From NCBI GenBank assembly GCA_030698695.1, contig JAUYMR010000017.1, positions 1-40,323 on the forward strand: 40,323 nt of DNA. The letters run 5' to 3'. The translations under genes were made by a program, and so were the position numbers. This DNA is from a bacterium (lineage in GTDB: Bacteria > Patescibacteriota > Minisyncoccia > UBA6257 > WO2-44-18). Shown piece after piece: positions 2,313 to 23,973 of the stretch. How positions within the stretch are numbered: the stretch's first letter is position 1; each line of letters starts with the position of its first letter. The notes beneath the pieces are model-generated. The model was not told the DNA's origin. It searched no databases and was given only the letters and a program-made list of their open reading frames with translations.

Positions 2313-4451
2313 ATGGCTAGATTATATCCCATAGAAAAAGTCAGAGACATCGGCGTCATTGCTCATATTGATGCTGGCAAAACCACTGTTACCGAGCGCA
2401 TTCTTTTTTATACTGGCGTTTCTCACAAAATTGGCGAAGTGCATACCGGTGATACGGTTATGGATTGGATGGAACAAGAGCGTGAACGCGGCATTACTAT
2501 TACGGCCGCCGCCACGACTTGTTTTTGGGTGCCAACTTATCGTCGCGCCGAAGGTTTAACTAGCGGTTTAAACGAGGACGAAGTTAAAAAGCAATACGAG
2601 CATCGTTTTAATATCATTGATACGCCGGGACACATTGATTTTACTGTTGAGGTTAAACGTTCTATGCGCGTGCTTGATGGCGCGGTAGTGGTTTTTGATG
2701 GCGTCGCTGGAGTAGAGCCACAATCAGAAACAAATTGGCGCTATGCCGATGAATATAAAGTTCCACGACTTTGTTTTATTAATAAACTGGACCGCATGGG
2801 GGCCAACTTTGAATCGGATATCAAATCCATCAAAGAAAGATTAACTCCTAACGCCATACCTATTCAGATTCCGATCGGTGTCGAGGGCGATTTTGAGGGC
2901 GTGGTGGATCTTATCAAGATGAAGGCCTATTATTTTGAAGGAGAAAGGGGCGCCAGTATTATTGAGAAAGATATCCCCAGCGAGTCGCAAGAAGCGGCCA
3001 AAAAATATAGACAAGAATTAATAGAGAAGATTGTTGAACAGGATGACCAACTGATGGCGTCATATTTAGATGGCAAAGAGCCGAGCGTGGAAGACCTCAA
3101 GAGGGTATTGCGTCAGGCTACTTTAAAAATTACTATAATTCCTATTTTATGCGGATCAGCTTTAAAAAATAAAGGGGTGCAATTGGTATTGGACGCGGTT
3201 ATAGATTTTCTACCTTCACCTGCCGATTTGCCACCAGTTAAGGGCTTAGATGTTAAAACCGGAGCAGAATTAGAACGCCATCCCAACGATGACGATCCGA
3301 CCGCGGCTCTGGCTTTCAAAATTGCCAATGATCCATTCGTGGGATCGTTGGGTTATTTCCGGGTTTATTCCGGAGTTGTTAAAAAGGGCAGTTATATTTT
3401 TAATTCCACTAAAAACGTCCAAGAGAGAATCGGGCGCATTGTTCGTTTACATGCTGATAAGCGCGAAGAAGTTGATGAAGTGCCATCGGGCGATATCGCG
3501 GCCATAGTCGGTTTGAAGAGTACTACTACCGGTGATACTTTATGTGATCCGGATCACCCGATTATCTTAGAAAAAATTGATTTTCCAGAGCCGGTTATTT
3601 CCATTCGTGTTGAGCCAAAAACCAAAGCTGATCAGGAAAAGATGGGCATTGCTTTGCGTCGTCTAGCCGAAGAAGATCCGACTTTTCGGGTTGCCGGCGA
3701 TATGGAGACCGGCGAAACTATTATTTCCGGCATGGGAGAGTTGCATTTGGAAATTATCGTTGATCGTATGAAGAGAGAATTTAAGGTAGAGGCCAGTACC
3801 GGCCGACCACAGGTCGCCTACAAGGAAACCATTAAAGGGACTGCCGATGCCGAGGGTAAATATATCAGACAATCTGGCGGACGCGGTCAATATGGTCATG
3901 TTCGGATTAAGCTACAACCGAATGAGCGCGGCAAGGGTTTTGAATTTATAAATGAGATTAAAGGAGGGGCCATTCCGCAAGAATTTATTCCGGCGATTGA
4001 AAAGGGTATTAAAGAAGCTATGGATAGGGGCGTGGTGGCTGGCTATCCTTTTGTAGATACGATAGTTAGCTTGTATGACGGATCTTATCACGACGTGGAT
4101 TCATCTGAGGCGGCTTTTAAAATAGCCGGTTCTATGGCCTTTCAAGAGGGCGCCAAAAGGGCTAAGGCGATTTTGTTGGAGCCCATTATGAAAGTTCAAG
4201 CTATTGCTCCTGCGGAATTTTTGGGTGATATAACTGGAGATCTTAGTTCCAAACGCGGCAAGATTGAAGCCATGAATGATCGTGGCAATCTTAAAGTGGT
4301 AGATGTTAACGTGCCTTTGTCAGAAATGTTCGGCTACGCGACTAAATTGCGCTCCATGACGCAGGGCCGAGGTTCTTTCAGTATGGAATTTAATAGTTAT
4401 GAAGAAGTTCCGGCTAGCGTGGCTCAGTTGATTATAGAAGGGAAGAAATAA
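2313..4451 (+). CDS. fusA: Elongation factor G
   Basis: [37 protein letters not shown]. Confidence 0.99.
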
Positions 4452-12970: not shown

Positions 12971-13807
12971 ATGCGTGATATAATCGTTATTTTTCATGGA
13001 GATTGTCCAGATGGGTTTAGTGGCGGTTGGGCGGCCTGGAAGAGGTTCGGCAATAGAGCTACCTATATTGCCGCCAAACATCATTTTCCACCCGTGACCA
13101 ATCTTAAAAACAAAGAAATTTACTTTGTAGATTTTATTTATCCCACAGAGATCACTAAAAAACTTATAAAAAACAACAAGCGGGTAGTTTTGATAGACCA
13201 TCATATTTCAGCCAAGCCCATAGCTAAACTTATCAAAGAAAAGCTATATCGTACCACTAATTCCGGCGCGGTGTTGGCTTGGCAATATTTTCATCCAGGT
13301 AAAAAAGTTCCTAAAATGTTGCTACACGTAGAGGATGTTGATCGTTGGCAATTCAAATTGCCGCATACTAGAGAAATTTCAGCTTACATCAACTTGTTTG
13401 ATTATAGTTTTAAAAATTGGAGCAAAATAGTGACTGACATAGATAACAAGAAAAAACTTAAAGAAATTATTAGTCATGGTAAGTGGGTATTAAAATATGA
13501 AGATCAATGGATAAACAAATTAATAAACAATGCTCAACTAGTAAAATTTTGTGGCTATAAAACGTTGATTGTTAATTCGCCCGTTTTGAATTCTGATATC
13601 GGCAATCGGCTTACAAAGATGCTACCGCCCGTAGGCATCGTTTGGAGTCAGAAAAGCGATGGGAAAATAGCAGTCTCTTTAAGATCAAGCGGCAGAGTTG
13701 ATGTTTCCAAATTGGCGGCAAAGTTTGGCGGTGGCGGACACAAGAGGGCGGCGGGTTTTGCCATAGATTCAAAAGAAAAATTTCCTTGGAAAGCTATCAA
13801 GAGTTAG
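12971..13807 (+). CDS. DHH/DHHA1 family phosphoesterase (NrnA-like)
   Basis: HGDCPDG, IDHH, SLRS, GGGGHKRAAG. Confidence 0.92.
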   Translation: MRDIIVIFHGDCPDGFSGGWAAWKRFGNRATYIAAKHHFPPVTNLKNKEIYFVDFIYPTEITKKLIKNNKRVVLIDHHISAKPIAKLIKEKLYRTTNSGAVLAWQYFHPGKKVPKMLLHVEDVDRWQFKLPHTREISAYINLFDYSFKNWSKIVTDIDNKKKLKEIISHGKWVLKYEDQWINKLINNAQLVKFCGYKTLIVNSPVLNSDIGNRLTKMLPPVGIVWSQKSDGKIAVSLRSSGRVDVSKLAAKFGGGGHKRAAGFAIDSKEKFPWKAIKS

Positions 13808-13872
13808 TCGGTGAGTTGTTTAATTGGTACGAAAAAGTTATCTGATCGGTTTAGTAGTTTAATCAATAAAAA

Positions 13873-14292
13873 ATGAACACGCTTTTTGATGATAAAAGAT
13901 TAGTGATTTATACCGATGGGGGAGCTAGGGGCAACCCCGGCCCAGCGGCTATCGGCGTAGTGGTTGGAAGTAAAAAATATGGTGAATACATTGGTGAAGC
14001 TACTAATAATGTCGCTGAATACAAAGCCGTTATTTTTGCTTTAAAAAAAGCCAAGGCGTTAATCGGCAAAAAAAAGGCGGCCGACGTAGAATTAGAAGTT
14101 AATATGGACAGTGAGTTAGTAGTTAGGCAATTAAACGGTGACTATAAGATTTTAGATGAAAATTTACAGCCGCTTTTTGTTGAGGTTTGGAATTTAAGAT
14201 TGGATTTTGGGGGGATTATTTTTAGACATGTTCCGCGCGAAAAAAATAAAGAGGCCGATGGATTGGTTAATGAAGCTCTTGACAATCAATAG
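13873..14292 (+). CDS. rnhA: Ribonuclease HI family protein
   Basis: YTDGGARGNPG, TNNVAEY, DSELV, HVPREKNKEAD. Confidence 0.93.
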   Translation: MNTLFDDKRLVIYTDGGARGNPGPAAIGVVVGSKKYGEYIGEATNNVAEYKAVIFALKKAKALIGKKKAADVELEVNMDSELVVRQLNGDYKILDENLQPLFVEVWNLRLDFGGIIFRHVPREKNKEADGLVNEALDNQ

Positions 14293-14306
14293 CTATCTGC
14301 CATAAT
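14279..14306 (+). promoter_or_regulatory. sigma70 promoter for the candidate ncRNA
   Basis: TTGACA (14279-84), 16 nt spacer ending TGC, CATAAT (14301-06). Confidence 0.65.
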
Positions 14307-14312
14307 GGTCAT

Positions 14313-14606
14313 ATCGCACATTGATTGAAGGTTTATATCGAGGTTAGGACTGAAATTGGCCCGCGATGTCGCAGTTATGACGCCGCGGCGCGGCTGCGAA
14401 TCTTGTCTGGAGTCAGATTCATAGTTTTCTGGTTGTGGGAACTCTGTCTCTAGACAAAAAGCGGGATCCTCTCGGTCCAACCTCGATACTAATTTTTACC
14501 GGGATTAGGCACCGGCCTGTCTAGTCGGAATGCTTGGTCCCAATGGTGACGTGCGCCCCGTGAGGCAGCCCCCGTACGATATTTTCATCGTACGGGGGCC
14601 TTTTTT
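14313..14606 (+). ncRNA. Unidentified structured non-coding RNA (possibly 6S-like)
   Basis: GC-rich, no credible ORF, nested helices with G-U pairs that favour the + strand, flanked by promoter and terminator. Confidence 0.7.
14568..14606 (+). terminator. Intrinsic terminator
   Basis: GCCCCCGTACGAT-ATTTTC-ATCGTACGGGGGC followed by CTTTTTT. Confidence 0.9.
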
Positions 14607-14748
14607 ATTAATAAGATTATTAATTTAAAATGAATTCGAAAACGATGAAAATAAATTCAAAGAATCATAATTAGAGAGCGGCAAAGCGGGGCGAGGGGGC
14701 GTGTTGCTGCTATTGACTTATATAGTAGTATCTGATATAATTAATAAC

Positions 14749-15969
14749 ATGATTAATATGAATAAATATATCGCGATTGTTACAATTTTATTGTCTTTGG
14801 GATTGATTCTTCAGGTTGCCCAAGCTAAAAACAATAGTTTCCCTGTCTGGGATCAGATATCAGATAAATCTGTTATAGCGGGACAAACTATTCAATTTAC
14901 TGTTAATGCTTCAGATCCGGATGGAGATGCTTTGTCGTATCAAATCGTGAATTTGCCCAAAGGCGCTACTTTTAATAGTTCTAGCAGAATATTTAATTGG
15001 AATCCCAACGAAGGTCAAGTTGGCGGTTGGTTGGTATGGTTTAAAGTTTCAGATGGCCAGCATTTATCTGAAATGATGATTTATGTCAGCGTGATTAGTT
15101 CTCAACAAACGGGCTCAGCTAATACCTCTACTAATGTAACCAATGATGATGCGATTTATTACACTAATTATACTGCTTCGCCGACATTTCTTAGTTTCAA
15201 TCCCTCTCTGACAGCTACCGAGGGCGTGCTTTACAATTATCAAATTCAAGCGGCTAGCAATAACGGCAGTATGACCAAATATCGTTTAACCGATTATCCT
15301 GGTGGTATGTTTATCAATGAAACAGCTGGTCTGATAGCTTGGGTGCCGAATGAGAATCAAGGACGCGCTGAACCATATCAAGTTACTGTGGTTGCTACTA
15401 ATGGTCAGTGGGAATCGAGCAGAACTTTTTATATTACAGTTAATGATGTTCAGACTTCTGAAACTATAACTAATAATACTTCTGGTAACAAAAACGCGTC
15501 AGTGCCTACATCCGGTAAATCGGCCAAAGAAGTTATAGAGGTGAGCGATGTCGTGATTGAAGCTAAAGATAATGGCGATATCGTTGTTAGTTGGAATACC
15601 AATCTGCCGACAAGGGACAGAATAATTTATGACATTGTTTCCGAAGCTGATCGCACTAGCGACTATGAATATGCTTATGCCAGTTCGGAAAGCGATGAGT
15701 TGTCTAAAAATCACGAAGTTAATTTAGGCAAATTAGACGTCGGTCAGACATATTATTTTCGCATAGTTTCCAAAACCGATAAAACCGTTAAGATCGGCCA
15801 AGAGAGGATTTTTGTTCGTTTGGCTGATGGGGCTATAAATGATTTGGGTCTAGCTTCCGCTTTCACTGCGTTGGGCAGTCTCTTATTCAGTCCAGGTATT
15901 TTGTTTATAGTTATTATTATACTAGGATTTATGCTATATCGTGCTAGAAAGAAATCAGATTTGATATAA
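14749..15969 (+). CDS. Cell-surface protein with cadherin/He_PIG Ig-like repeats, an FN3-like domain and a C-terminal TM anchor
   Basis: Signal peptide (AQA); ASDPDGDALSY..NLPKGA.F, WNP...VSDG; a second Ig repeat; VSWNT...TYYFRI; C-terminal TM plus basic tail; start set by TTGACT-17-TATAAT 7 nt upstream. Confidence 0.85.
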   Translation: MINMNKYIAIVTILLSLGLILQVAQAKNNSFPVWDQISDKSVIAGQTIQFTVNASDPDGDALSYQIVNLPKGATFNSSSRIFNWNPNEGQVGGWLVWFKVSDGQHLSEMMIYVSVISSQQTGSANTSTNVTNDDAIYYTNYTASPTFLSFNPSLTATEGVLYNYQIQAASNNGSMTKYRLTDYPGGMFINETAGLIAWVPNENQGRAEPYQVTVVATNGQWESSRTFYITVNDVQTSETITNNTSGNKNASVPTSGKSAKEVIEVSDVVIEAKDNGDIVVSWNTNLPTRDRIIYDIVSEADRTSDYEYAYASSESDELSKNHEVNLGKLDVGQTYYFRIVSKTDKTVKIGQERIFVRLADGAINDLGLASAFTALGSLLFSPGILFIVIIILGFMLYRARKKSDLI

Positions 15970-16068: not shown

Positions 16069-16070
16069 CA

Positions 16071-16428
16071 AGCTGGTAATTCATAAGCCGGATTCTGTAT
16101 CAAGCAATCATTTATCTGGGATCAATATTACTATTGACCTCTAGCGGCACTCCCGCCTCAATGGCGGGCGCGGCCTTGCGCCCAGTAAGGATTTAGCCGT
16201 TTCATTCCAGTCTTTTAATCTCTATAACTGGACTAGACCAACTAGCTTGAGATTGGGTCTTCCGATTCCTTTCGAAACCGGACGTTTCTGCTCGCACCTC
16301 TGTATCACTACTGATGGATGTTATCCATTACTATTTTATCCCGATAAACATCGGGAGAGCGTCCGGACTTTCCTCCCAGTTCTTTTGACATTCGTCATGG
16401 GTCTGGGCGATTGCCCGAATTACCAGCT
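16071..16428 (-). ncRNA. rnpB: RNase P RNA
   Basis: Minus strand carries GAGGAAAGTCCGG and ACAGAATCCGGCTTAT (P4 halves); ends pair through AGCTGGTAATTC/GAATTACCAGCT (P1). Confidence 0.95.
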
Positions 16429-21576: not shown

Positions 21577-23973
21577 TTAACATGGTTTATGGCAAATGCG
21601 GAAACCTAACGTGCCACAAGTTTTTTCCGTTTTATCGGCGACCGTGCGCACTTTAGTGGCGGCAATATCTGAATCATAGCGCCAACAACCGCCTCTGGTA
21701 ATTACCTTGTCAGTCGCGCCATTAGCAAAGCTATTGGTGAATTCTCTAACTCCGCCGGCACAGCCACGCACTCCATAGATAGACGTATCTTGTCTAGGAA
21801 TTTTATCAATGGGCAGCAGCTTGGCGTTTCCTGGTGGGCAAGAGTCCCAGAGGTTGGCGAAAGTTGGCTCGTCGGCGTTACCCCAAGGTTGACGACGTCC
21901 GTCTACGCCGGTCGCCGCCTTTTCCCACGACCATTCATCGGGCAACGAAAATTGTATGCCGATTAATTGAGATAACCACTTACAGTAAGCGTTGGCATTA
22001 TGCCACGAGATGCCCGTGACTGGGAGTAAGTCATGATCTGGCATCGGCATCATAAATTTTTTAGAATCTTCATCAAACAACCATAGGGGATCGCCATCTT
22101 CATCGTGTGGCAATAGTTCGTTGATATTATCGGAATATTTTATGGTTAGCGTGCTGTTAATAAATGCTAGATATTCTTTACAGGTGACTGGATAGCGAGC
22201 TATGAAGAAATCATCAGCTTTCAGGGTGGTTAGTTCTTTGCAGCCCGGAGAGTGGGAATCGCCGCCCGATATAAATTGTCCCGCGGGAATATAGGCAAAA
22301 TAATTGGAAGGTATTCTGTCAGGATTGATTTGATTGTCGGCATAGAAATTAATCAAGCCTTCCCATTTTTGCAAGCGAGTAATGTTGATTGGATAGCGTA
22401 TGATGCGATGGCCGGAGGCCTTAACTAGAATCAAATACGATCCTATGGGCAATGAAAAGCGCGTTGGGATAATATTATCGGCATATGATGGTAGCGGATA
22501 AAATAACGGCGCCAATCTTCTATTATATTCAATGAATCTATAAATTTTGATTCTGGCGTTGGGGGAGGGAGAATTCAAATCCAGTATGCTGTTGCCGGCC
22601 AAAAAAGCGGTAAAGCGATTACAATGGTCATGCTCGCGCATAAATTTCTCGGCCAGCGCCATTTTGTCTTTATTGCCAGATTGCTCCGCTTCAATAAATT
22701 CTATTTTATAATGATCGGCCAATAGTAGATGTGCTTTATCATTTTCAGCGTCATCCAAGAGTACTTGAGTAAGAGTCGCGATATAATCGGCGTTTAGAGC
22801 GGCGATAACCTGTTTGAAGGCTCTACAAAAATTTTCTAGACGGATGATTTTTGATTTTTCTTTAAGAGGTTTCCATGGCGGAATCGTCGTTCGCAATTTA
22901 TTAAGCCGGATTCTGTATTGTCCGTGTTGTTGTTGTAATTTTTTTAAGAGTTTTTTTAGACAAGAAGCCTCTACTAATTTTTCTTTAGCGCGCTCTTTAG
23001 CAGTTTCCCCGTTAAGCATCTTCTCAATTACGTCTATCATTTCAGCGATATTCTGATAACGATTATCTGGATTTTTGGTCATTGCTTTTTGTATGACAGC
23101 TCTAAGCTCAAGCGGTTTTATTTTATTCATCAACGCCGGCTCTTCATTAAGAATTTTGTGTTTATATGTTTCGTAGTTATTATCTGAGAAGAAGAATGGC
23201 GATAAGCCGGTCAATAATTCATAAAGAATCGTTCCCAGAGAATAGATATCGGAACGATGATCAATTTCACGACCAGTGACTTGTTCTGGCGACATATAAG
23301 CGGGCGTACCAGCAATGGTTCCTTCATTCAAATGGTCGGCGAAACTTTTAATTTTTGACAGGCCCCAGTCCAGAACAAAAACGTTGCCGGTTTTGTTCTC
23401 AATCATAATATTGCCAGGCTTAAGATCGCGGTGAATCACATTGCAGTTGTTGGCAAAACTTATGGCGTGACATATTTCTAAGAATAAACGCAGACGCTGG
23501 AAAGTATTGGCTTGATGAGGTTTTTTATTGTCGGCGATATATGATCCGAGAGTTTTGCCCTCAACCAGCTTCATAACAACAAATAATTGTCCTTCTGGAA
23601 TTTCATGAGCAGACCATTCAGCCGGCGTTTCTCCATAATCATAAATGGGAATTATATTCTGGTGTTCTAATCTGGCTTGAATGATGCCTTCGCGCAACAT
23701 TTGCGATGCGGCAGATGGCGATGAAGAGATGTTCAAAATCTTAATAGCGACAGATCGTCCCAGTCCACCTTCTCTAGCTCTAAAAACTTGCCCAAACCCG
23801 CCGGAGCCGATTCGCTCTTCAATTTGATAACGTTTAGCTCCGATTGGGAGATTTTTGGGATTGGGGATGACTAATTCCGGCAATCTACCGTGCGAGGTTG
23901 TTAATTCTGGAAATAGGATACTAGGTTCCGCAATGAGCATATTGGTTTCTATTTCAATCTGGGTGTGAGTCAT
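21577..23973 (-). CDS. Hanks-type Ser/Thr protein kinase fused to a C-terminal FGE/SUMF1 (formylglycine-generating enzyme-like) domain
   Basis: GSGGFGQV, VAIK, HRDLKPGN, DWG, GTPAYMSPEQ, SDIYSLG; C-terminal YPVT..EY..F, PVTGISW..A..YC.W, LPDE..WEKAA.G, RGG.W, GFR. Confidence 0.93.
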   Translation of the reverse strand: MTHTQIEIETNMLIAEPSILFPELTTSHGRLPELVIPNPKNLPIGAKRYQIEERIGSGGFGQVFRAREGGLGRSVAIKILNISSSPSAASQMLREGIIQARLEHQNIIPIYDYGETPAEWSAHEIPEGQLFVVMKLVEGKTLGSYIADNKKPHQANTFQRLRLFLEICHAISFANNCNVIHRDLKPGNIMIENKTGNVFVLDWGLSKIKSFADHLNEGTIAGTPAYMSPEQVTGREIDHRSDIYSLGTILYELLTGLSPFFFSDNNYETYKHKILNEEPALMNKIKPLELRAVIQKAMTKNPDNRYQNIAEMIDVIEKMLNGETAKERAKEKLVEASCLKKLLKKLQQQHGQYRIRLNKLRTTIPPWKPLKEKSKIIRLENFCRAFKQVIAALNADYIATLTQVLLDDAENDKAHLLLADHYKIEFIEAEQSGNKDKMALAEKFMREHDHCNRFTAFLAGNSILDLNSPSPNARIKIYRFIEYNRRLAPLFYPLPSYADNIIPTRFSLPIGSYLILVKASGHRIIRYPINITRLQKWEGLINFYADNQINPDRIPSNYFAYIPAGQFISGGDSHSPGCKELTTLKADDFFIARYPVTCKEYLAFINSTLTIKYSDNINELLPHDEDGDPLWLFDEDSKKFMMPMPDHDLLPVTGISWHNANAYCKWLSQLIGIQFSLPDEWSWEKAATGVDGRRQPWGNADEPTFANLWDSCPPGNAKLLPIDKIPRQDTSIYGVRGCAGGVREFTNSFANGATDKVITRGGCWRYDSDIAATKVRTVADKTEKTCGTLGFRICHKPC

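Follow-up and report, generated by a model that had tools for sequence, protein, structure and literature searches.

A promoter- and terminator-bounded, structured non-coding unit downstream of rnhA in a Patescibacteria genome, possibly a young small RNA gene

We have analyzed a stretch of 40,323 nucleotides (nt) of contig JAUYMR010000017.1 (the window), which belongs to a 568-kb assembly of a groundwater bacterium of ultra-small size, estimated to be 94% complete and placed in Patescibacteria/Paceibacteria by the titles of related loci. The subject of the study is the plus-strand segment 14279-14606, located between rnhA and a gene for an immunoglobulin (Ig)-like secreted surface protein. The segment, hereafter the candidate, contains a promoter, a folding body free of open reading frames (ORFs) and an intrinsic terminator; this observation was confirmed as real, well formed and non-coding. 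The reading that we favor, with a confidence that stays tentative, is that the candidate is a young, lineage-specific small RNA (sRNA) that has a promoter of its own, shares its terminator with rnhA and arose from a former promoter slot of rnpB, the RNase P RNA gene. The points in its favor are the rarity of such a promoter, the terminator, the folding z-score, the raised GC content, the excess of G-U pairs, the lack of an ORF and the housekeeping surroundings.

The features of the unit, obtained from promoter and terminator scans and from predicted folds, are the following.

14279 to 14306, plus strand: sigma-70-type promoter, composed of TTGACA (14279-14284), a 16-nt spacer and TG-n-CATAAT (14301-14306), with 11/12 matches and an extended -10.
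14313 to 14606, plus strand: predicted transcript of ~294 nt, with the inferred start 7 nt past the -10 and the end in the T-run.
14316 to 14319, plus strand: 5' half of a predicted closing stem (GCAC/GUGC, pairing with 14551-14554), which is weak and varies in register between folds.
14336 to 14488, plus strand: Y-shaped long hairpin of 153 nt, on which all three predicted folds agree and which is kept in the fold of the strain variant described below.
14501 to 14541, plus strand: 3' hairpin of 11 + 5 base pairs (bp), with a 2-nt AA bulge and a 7-nt loop, present in three predicted folds.
14558 to 14567, plus strand: C-rich linker between the body and the terminator, predicted to be largely unpaired, save for the closing half of a weak 3-bp hairpin in the fold started at 14313.
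14568 to 14606, plus strand: intrinsic terminator with a 13-bp stem (nine G-C pairs) and a 6-nt loop (stem-loop 14568-14599), followed by the T-run CTTTTTTATT.

Sites with the quality of the candidate promoter were found six times on both strands of the 40 kb, compared with 1.43 ± 1.15 expected from 100 shuffles. Three of the other five were located directly 5' of ORFs, at positions 1299 (rpsL), 14713 (the Ig-like gene) and 16472 (ORF 16549). Thus, promoters of such near-consensus quality seem to be used in this organism. The -35 hexamer of the candidate lies within the end codons of rnhA (..A L D N Q, stop). The stem-loop at 14568-14599 is the sole terminator after rnhA and is therefore common to the upstream pgk/DHH/rnhA operon. 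With its own promoter, an intrinsic terminator and no ORF, the candidate has the generic attributes of an independently transcribed sRNA. A terminator look-alike, 83% identical over 41 nt to 14568-14606, occurs elsewhere in the genome, on contig C13 (C13:37603-37641). It ends a segment (C13:37240-37645) that starts with a promoter-like TTGACA..TATCCT, followed by a possible small ORF of ~70 amino acids (aa) with a good Shine-Dalgarno sequence.

The predicted minimum free energy (MFE) of the plus strand between 14307 and 14606 was -138.5 kcal/mol, against -96.6 ± 5.4 kcal/mol for 200 dinucleotide shuffles (z -7.78), with 0/200 shuffles being as good. When folding began at the inferred transcript start (14313-14606), the MFE was -136.4 kcal/mol (z -8.56). 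The minus strand of 14307-14606 likewise folded well (-115.6 kcal/mol, z -6.82), so that the preference for the plus strand is real but modest. The same holds for base pairing, with 16 G-U pairs versus 3 A.C oppositions in the plus-strand fold and 10 G-U pairs in the minus-strand fold.

The predicted RNA holds some 110 base pairs, arranged as the weak closing stem, the Y-shaped hairpin and the 41-nt hairpin (a body of ~255 nt), and then the terminator. The base of the Y-shaped hairpin is formed by helices of 10 bp (14336-14345/14479-14488) and 7 bp (14347-14353/14472-14478), followed by a 6 × 6 internal loop, the largest in the predicted folds, and by the CCCGC/GCGGG helix. Its upper arms span 14365-14402 and 14403-14457, and the apical loops of the structure are GGCG, UGGUUGU and CUGUCUA. 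The GC content of the candidate is 0.475-0.525, compared with 0.28-0.40 in the flanks (0.28 in the next spacer) and 0.40 genome-wide; that of the RNase P RNA gene is 0.51. The longest in-sense ORF (14325-14453) would encode 42 aa from a TTG start with no Shine-Dalgarno sequence. Neither its product nor that of a 64-aa antisense ORF matched Pfam. A preliminary description of this DNA, made from the nucleotide sequence, had proposed the promoter at 14279-14306, the 13-bp terminator with its T-run and a GC-rich stretch without a credible ORF, all of which were borne out by the scans and by the composition, ORF and Pfam checks. All the helices that it listed occur in the sequence and recur in the MFE or centroid folds. 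Its suggestion that the imperfections are mostly G-U wobbles valid only on the plus strand stood as far as the G-U excess is concerned, but the strand preference proved modest.

The neighborhood of the unit bears on its origin. The relevant genes are given below.

13873 to 14292, plus strand: rnhA, RNase H-like protein of 139 aa (Pfam RVT_3 3e-14, RNase_H 3e-10), found in the ORF list.
14713 to 14741, plus strand: promoter of the Ig-like gene (TTGACT, 17 nt, TG-n-TATAAT), separate from that of the candidate, found in the promoter scan.
14749 to 15969, plus strand: secreted surface protein with Ig-like, He_PIG and fn3 Pfam domains and a C-terminal membrane anchor.
16069 to 16426, minus strand: RNase P RNA gene (rnpB; RF00010, 107 bits, E 6e-32), convergent with the Ig-like gene.

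The genes rnhA and rnpB are neighbors across Patescibacteria. RNase P motifs were detected at most 700 nt after rnhA at 42 of 74 loci from species genomes (21 on the same strand and 21 on the opposite one) and at 40 of 65 metagenome loci (9 and 31, respectively), these counts omitting loci with less than 450 nt downstream (6 from species genomes and 15 from metagenomes). In a genome of the same family (G003), rnpB starts 12 nt past the rnhA stop codon. Its promoter consists of TTGATA, 17 nt and TACAGT, with the rnpB 5' end 5 nt further, and the -35 occupies the same rnhA A-L-D codons as the TTGACA of the candidate. The candidate therefore resembles rnpB of G003 and of many other loci in its position, strand and promoter placement after rnhA. 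Unlike it, the candidate has no sequence or model similarity to rnpB, and the real rnpB of this genome sits 1.8 kb downstream of the candidate slot, on the opposite strand and beyond the Ig-like gene. The candidate was also tried as an rnpB relic and rejected, its local alignment to the rnpB of the genome being at chance level (z 0.2). Within the genus, rnhA (+) is followed by a small unit (+), the Ig-like gene (+) and rnpB (-), an arrangement also present in the sister species G001. An inversion of the convergent rnpB/Ig-like pair could have left the rnpB promoter facing the Ig-like gene.

The G001 unit (locus L017, about 2930-3075) is composed of a TTGACA..TAATAT promoter, a 51-nt hairpin and a terminator, with ~120 nt in total. 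Its TTGACA is perfect and the promoter lies wholly outside rnhA, past the stop codon. Between G001 and the genome under study, RnhA is 72% identical and the Ig-like protein, the product of the syntenic gene, 48% identical, indicating that a transcribed unit was retained across considerable divergence. That both members of the genus have kept a hairpin between a strong promoter and a terminator favors a transcribed, possibly useful unit. The two units share their synteny and their layout, and possibly a core (candidate 14341-14362 versus the 5' arm of G001, 17/23 identical with one gap), although this match is not above chance. Compared with the candidate, the G001 unit has no closing stem, no 3' hairpin and no 105-nt insert with two arms, and no BLAST or model search linked the two. 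We have considered the G001 hairpin as a homologue of the base of the long hairpin, with three compensatory pairs, and dropped this reading as the local alignment did not exceed shuffles. When used as the query, the G001 unit gave only chance matches in 60 relatives and none in the genome under study. Orthologues of the Ig-like gene were present in 16 of 20 family genomes; the 12 upstream regions examined show other neighbors and no comparable element, and are mostly short. A GC-rich stretch upstream of one orthologue (in G020) had no meaningful Rfam match.

Homologues of the RNA body were searched for in several ways. No match was obtained with blastn in 60 relatives, nor with a single-sequence covariance model of the candidate (R1; 256 positions, 95 pairs) in 100 relatives and 150 genomes of the class (250 related genomes). 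The combination of nhmmer, blastn and R1 was equally negative at 80 rnhA loci from species genomes and 80 from metagenomes (the latter within a set of 83 loci in the case of nhmmer and blastn). With the filters off, R1 returned only noise at 14 loci, with at most 12.5 bits and never at the syntenic site. Phages and plasmids gave no match, and viral contigs gave none to three 19-20-mers. In species genomes, a 16-mer was matched at 77 loci; none of the matches extended beyond 29 nt, and all are attributable to chance. The candidate is single-copy, with no paralogue in its own genome. Because a model built from one sequence and run behind speed filters can reach only so far, the body is better described as not found than as absent.

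We have compared the candidate with known RNA families using the Rfam 15 covariance models at the gathering score and then at a relaxed threshold (E ≤ 10) on 14200-14720. No match was obtained at the gathering score, and the best matches at E ≤ 10 were terminator-driven noise, namely Spot 42 (22 bits, cut-off 80) and Srn266 (25 bits, cut-off 63). The candidate falls outside all described RNA families. For tmRNA, the candidate was not matched and ARAGORN reported none in the window, the real tmRNA being at C13:32116-32426 (105 bits). No RNase P family, whose members are recognized by the conserved regions CR-I and CR-V and by a model match, was found on the candidate at E ≤ 10. No riboswitch, T-box or leader family, or any other cis-regulatory Rfam entry, rose above noise. 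The preliminary description had seen no signature of tmRNA, signal recognition particle (SRP) RNA, RNase P RNA or group II intron, in agreement with these results, and the Infernal search against Rfam that it recommended yielded no strong match, hence no known family was assigned. It had also recommended collecting homologues downstream of rnhA in related Patescibacteria; none was found among the 160 rnhA loci. Its idea of an undescribed RNA class was not established, since a class needs members and the candidate is a singleton.

The SRP RNA reading was rejected on model and motif grounds, there being no domain IV GNRA tetraloop among the apical loops, and because no Ffh was found. No SRP family appeared at E ≤ 10 on the candidate, and both RF00169 and RF01854 were blank in the genome. 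In this 94% complete assembly we found no PF02978, PF00448 or TIGR00959 match and no ORF with DT[AS]GR, and FtsY was likewise not found. The Ffh M domain (PF02978) was detected in 0 of 151 Patescibacteria genomes and 0 of 26 relatives, and the small SRP RNA in 0 of 26 relatives; TIGR00959, searched for in this and four other genomes, gave only one weak sub-threshold match, in G103. Ffh-related sequences from Adlerbacteria and another Patescibacteria bacterium are listed in one paper, so this blank may be an artefact of the search prefilter. Two further identities were discarded: a Y RNA, as no Ro60 (TROVE) gene was found in the genome, and a CsrB-type sponge, as no CsrA gene was found there, CsrA being the one chaperone looked for.

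Natural variation was examined in contigs holding the stretch, which derive solely from DNA runs of one groundwater study. The contig of run X2 was identical to the reference over 13700-14508. That of run X1 (2,790 nt, covering 13832-15200) carried 13 substitutions and 1 insertion, all of them in the following tract and none in the other ~1,290 nt.

14287 to 14368, no strand assigned: strain-variable tract, defined by comparing the run X1 contig with the reference.

The tract extends over the rnhA stop codon and the promoter spacer into the 5' part of the RNA; past 14368, the two strains do not differ over 240 nt. Transitions account for ten of the 13 substitutions. In the promoter spacer, 14287 C>T converts the last rnhA codon into a stop, making RnhA one residue shorter. 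Four C/U changes opposite G retain their pairs (14309, 14310, 14315 and 14351), one AG-to-GA swap shifts a bulge and one change is unpaired (14368). Such clustering resembles either local hypermutation or a short patch acquired by recombination with an unsampled relative.

A number of observations weigh against a functional RNA. The body has no homologue in any of the searches and is a singleton, and the similarity of the G001 unit to the candidate is at chance (local score 18 versus 16.6 ± 2.6, with 36% of 500 shuffles as good). The X1 differences break the weak helix 14326-14333/14491-14498 three times, together with two terminal pairs (14336 and 14360). The X1 variant folded to an MFE of -105.1 kcal/mol, which 15% of 300 random mutants of the tract equaled or bettered; when the reference structure was imposed on it, the energy was -93.5 kcal/mol, and 63% of the random mutants were equal or better. 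The variant thus keeps the fold no better than random mutations would, and so does not speak for selection on the 5' helices, though the central domain is retained. The long perfect stems and the well-folding minus strand fit young DNA-level inverted repeats equally well. Furthermore, several other GC-rich spacers of this genome fold as strongly, with no Rfam match at E ≤ 0.01, and some are dispersed hairpin repeats; in GC content the candidate ranks eighth among 74 intergenic stretches of at least 200 nt. In this genome, strong folding on its own is therefore a weak argument for function, and neither it nor raised GC by itself marks a conserved RNA class. Taken with the body not being conserved (~120 versus 290 nt within the genus), these data favor the explanation that the transcript is a functionless by-product of rearrangement. 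According to it, the rnpB promoter was orphaned, in the same slot as that of G003, with its -35 held by the coding constraint on rnhA; the terminator serves to end the rnhA operon and to insulate the Ig-like gene, and the hairpins are neutral, recent inverted repeats of fast turnover, of the kind represented by the GC-rich hairpin repeats found elsewhere in this genome and in relatives. We regard this explanation as rather unlikely, yet as a serious competitor. It has to accommodate that 300 nt of junk is rarely kept in a 568-kb genome, that the GC content is well above that of the adjoining AT-rich spacers, that G001 retained a perfect TTGACA and a good -10 outside any coding constraint, and that the plus strand shows the 16 to 3 excess of G-U over A.C and the stretch of 240 invariant nt.

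The remaining explanations appear less probable to different degrees. The unit lies directly 5' of the Ig-like gene and is co-directional with it, in the same layout as in the sister species, and could be a cis-acting leader or attenuator in which transcripts from 14279 stop at the terminator or read into the gene according to a signal sensed in the body. This is improbable, as the Ig-like gene has its own near-consensus promoter 107 nt past the terminator, no alternative anti-terminator pairing was seen, no riboswitch or leader family matched, and the upstream regions of its orthologues mostly lack such an element. The preliminary description had offered a divergent 6S RNA, a type that would bind the RNA polymerase holoenzyme. 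As would be expected of such an RNA, the candidate is stand-alone and highly paired, with closed ends and its own promoter and terminator, and it belongs to a genome in which the slot seems unfilled (RF00013 was not found above its cut-off in this genome or in 40 relatives). Whereas the 6S architecture is a long hairpin opened by a large bubble at its center, both the MFE and the centroid fold have three branches and no internal loop above 6 × 6 nt, and RF00013 (gathering score 46.4 bits) gave no match on 14200-14720 at E ≤ 10 and none in the whole genome. The candidate is, in addition, 60-100 nt longer than typical 6S RNA, and its body has no counterpart in the sister species or any searched relative, whereas a housekeeping RNA should be conserved. 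The 6S proposal was hence not sustained, and we consider it very unlikely. A comparably low probability is given to an origin from imported foreign DNA or from a MITE-like, non-autonomous hairpin element, either inserted here or left as a remnant. The atypical GC content, the perfect inverted repeats flanked by TA and the dispersed hairpin repeats of the genome would fit it, but the candidate is single-copy, the searches of phages, plasmids, viral contigs, relatives and species-genome 16-mers gave nothing beyond chance, and no mobile-element gene, including transposase and integrase genes, was found nearby. Least plausible of all is the messenger RNA (mRNA) of a small protein, for example one that encodes a type I toxin and is heavily folded. 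The 42-aa ORF ends in a partly hydrophobic stretch, and in being folded, with its ends paired, the RNA is similar to hok-type mRNAs. Against it stand the TTG start and the missing Shine-Dalgarno sequence and Pfam match, as well as the 1-nt insertion of the co-occurring X1 strain, which falls inside the ORF and would break its frame, and the substitutions of that strain, which show no third-position bias.

According to the young sRNA reading, the unit would be transcribed as a stable RNA of ~290 nt that starts from its own promoter and ends at the terminator of the upstream mRNA. Its recent origin is suggested by the many relatives that have rnpB directly after rnhA and by the G003 rnpB promoter, whose -35 falls in the corresponding rnhA codons; what was the rnpB promoter slot would now drive a new, fast-evolving transcript. 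If functional, the RNA would most likely act in trans, our guess being that it pairs through mostly unpaired C/U-rich segments or binds a protein. The side of the internal loop at 14466-14471 (AUCCUC) and the linker at 14558-14567 (CCGUGAGGCA) may together form the interaction site. Type I 3'-UTR-derived sRNAs of enterobacteria include MicL, inside cutC, and DapZ, after dapB, and depend on Hfq. By analogy, the candidate would be similar to MicL and DapZ in that its promoter lies partly within the end of the preceding coding sequence, its terminator also serves the upstream mRNA and the small transcript is independent. It differs from them in being far larger and more structured (~290 nt and ~110 bp) and in its lack of conservation.

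A more elaborate version of the young sRNA reading, which we put forward as speculative and improbable as a whole, is that of a structured RNA gene caught soon after birth. Rearrangement would have moved rnpB, and the vacated promoter slot would have gained a new RNA body that grew from a hairpin of ~50 nt (the G001 state) to three domains and ~255 nt, with the 5' 60 nt diversifying between co-occurring strains and the 3' 240 nt fixed. Such a split between a diversifying 5' part and a fixed 3' part would be expected if a variable recognition region were mounted on a constant scaffold.

The regulatory RNAs of Patescibacteria (also named CPR) are very poorly known, and our literature search found no paper on 6S RNA or non-coding RNA in this group. 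If an abundant 290-nt RNA were confirmed, it would be among the first lineage-specific sRNAs in Patescibacteria and a clean example of the re-use of a freed housekeeping promoter. At present, the candidate is of practical value mainly as something to look for in metatranscriptomes of the groundwater community from which it comes.

As to the wider context, rnhA is the last gene of the co-directional run pgk/DHH-DHHA1/rnhA, and the surrounding region of the window is purely housekeeping, with rpsL, rpsG, fusA, fmt, def, pgk, rnhA, rnpB, hrcA, grpE, dnaK, dnaJ and secDF. The short RNase P CR-V-like pattern matched a second time at window position 22916 (minus strand), inside a Ser/Thr kinase/FGE-sulfatase gene, presumably by chance.

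Outside the window, the genome contains a GC-rich repeat of ~470 nt that folds very strongly (z -9 to -12), with two full copies that are 84% identical and partial copies at contig ends, and with no Rfam match at E ≤ 0.01. The sites are C32:2100-2570, C29:6564-7018, C41:4775-4930, C43:2820-2936 and C22:8570-8669. No sequence is common to the candidate and these repeats. Hairpin modules of 30-50 nt from the repeat recur, often in multiple copies, in 15 of 60 relatives. Other strongly folding spacers (z -5.7 to -10), again with no Rfam match at E ≤ 0.01, were located at C44:5181-5491, C28:6398-6998, C6:8297-8703 and C27:3523-4519.

Finally, the Ig-like gene is probably leaderless. At 14683-14712, directly 5' of its promoter -35, a G-rich element (GCGGGGCGAGGGGGCG) lies within a small GCGGCAA...UUGCUGC hairpin; this element may be an operator or an UP-like site.

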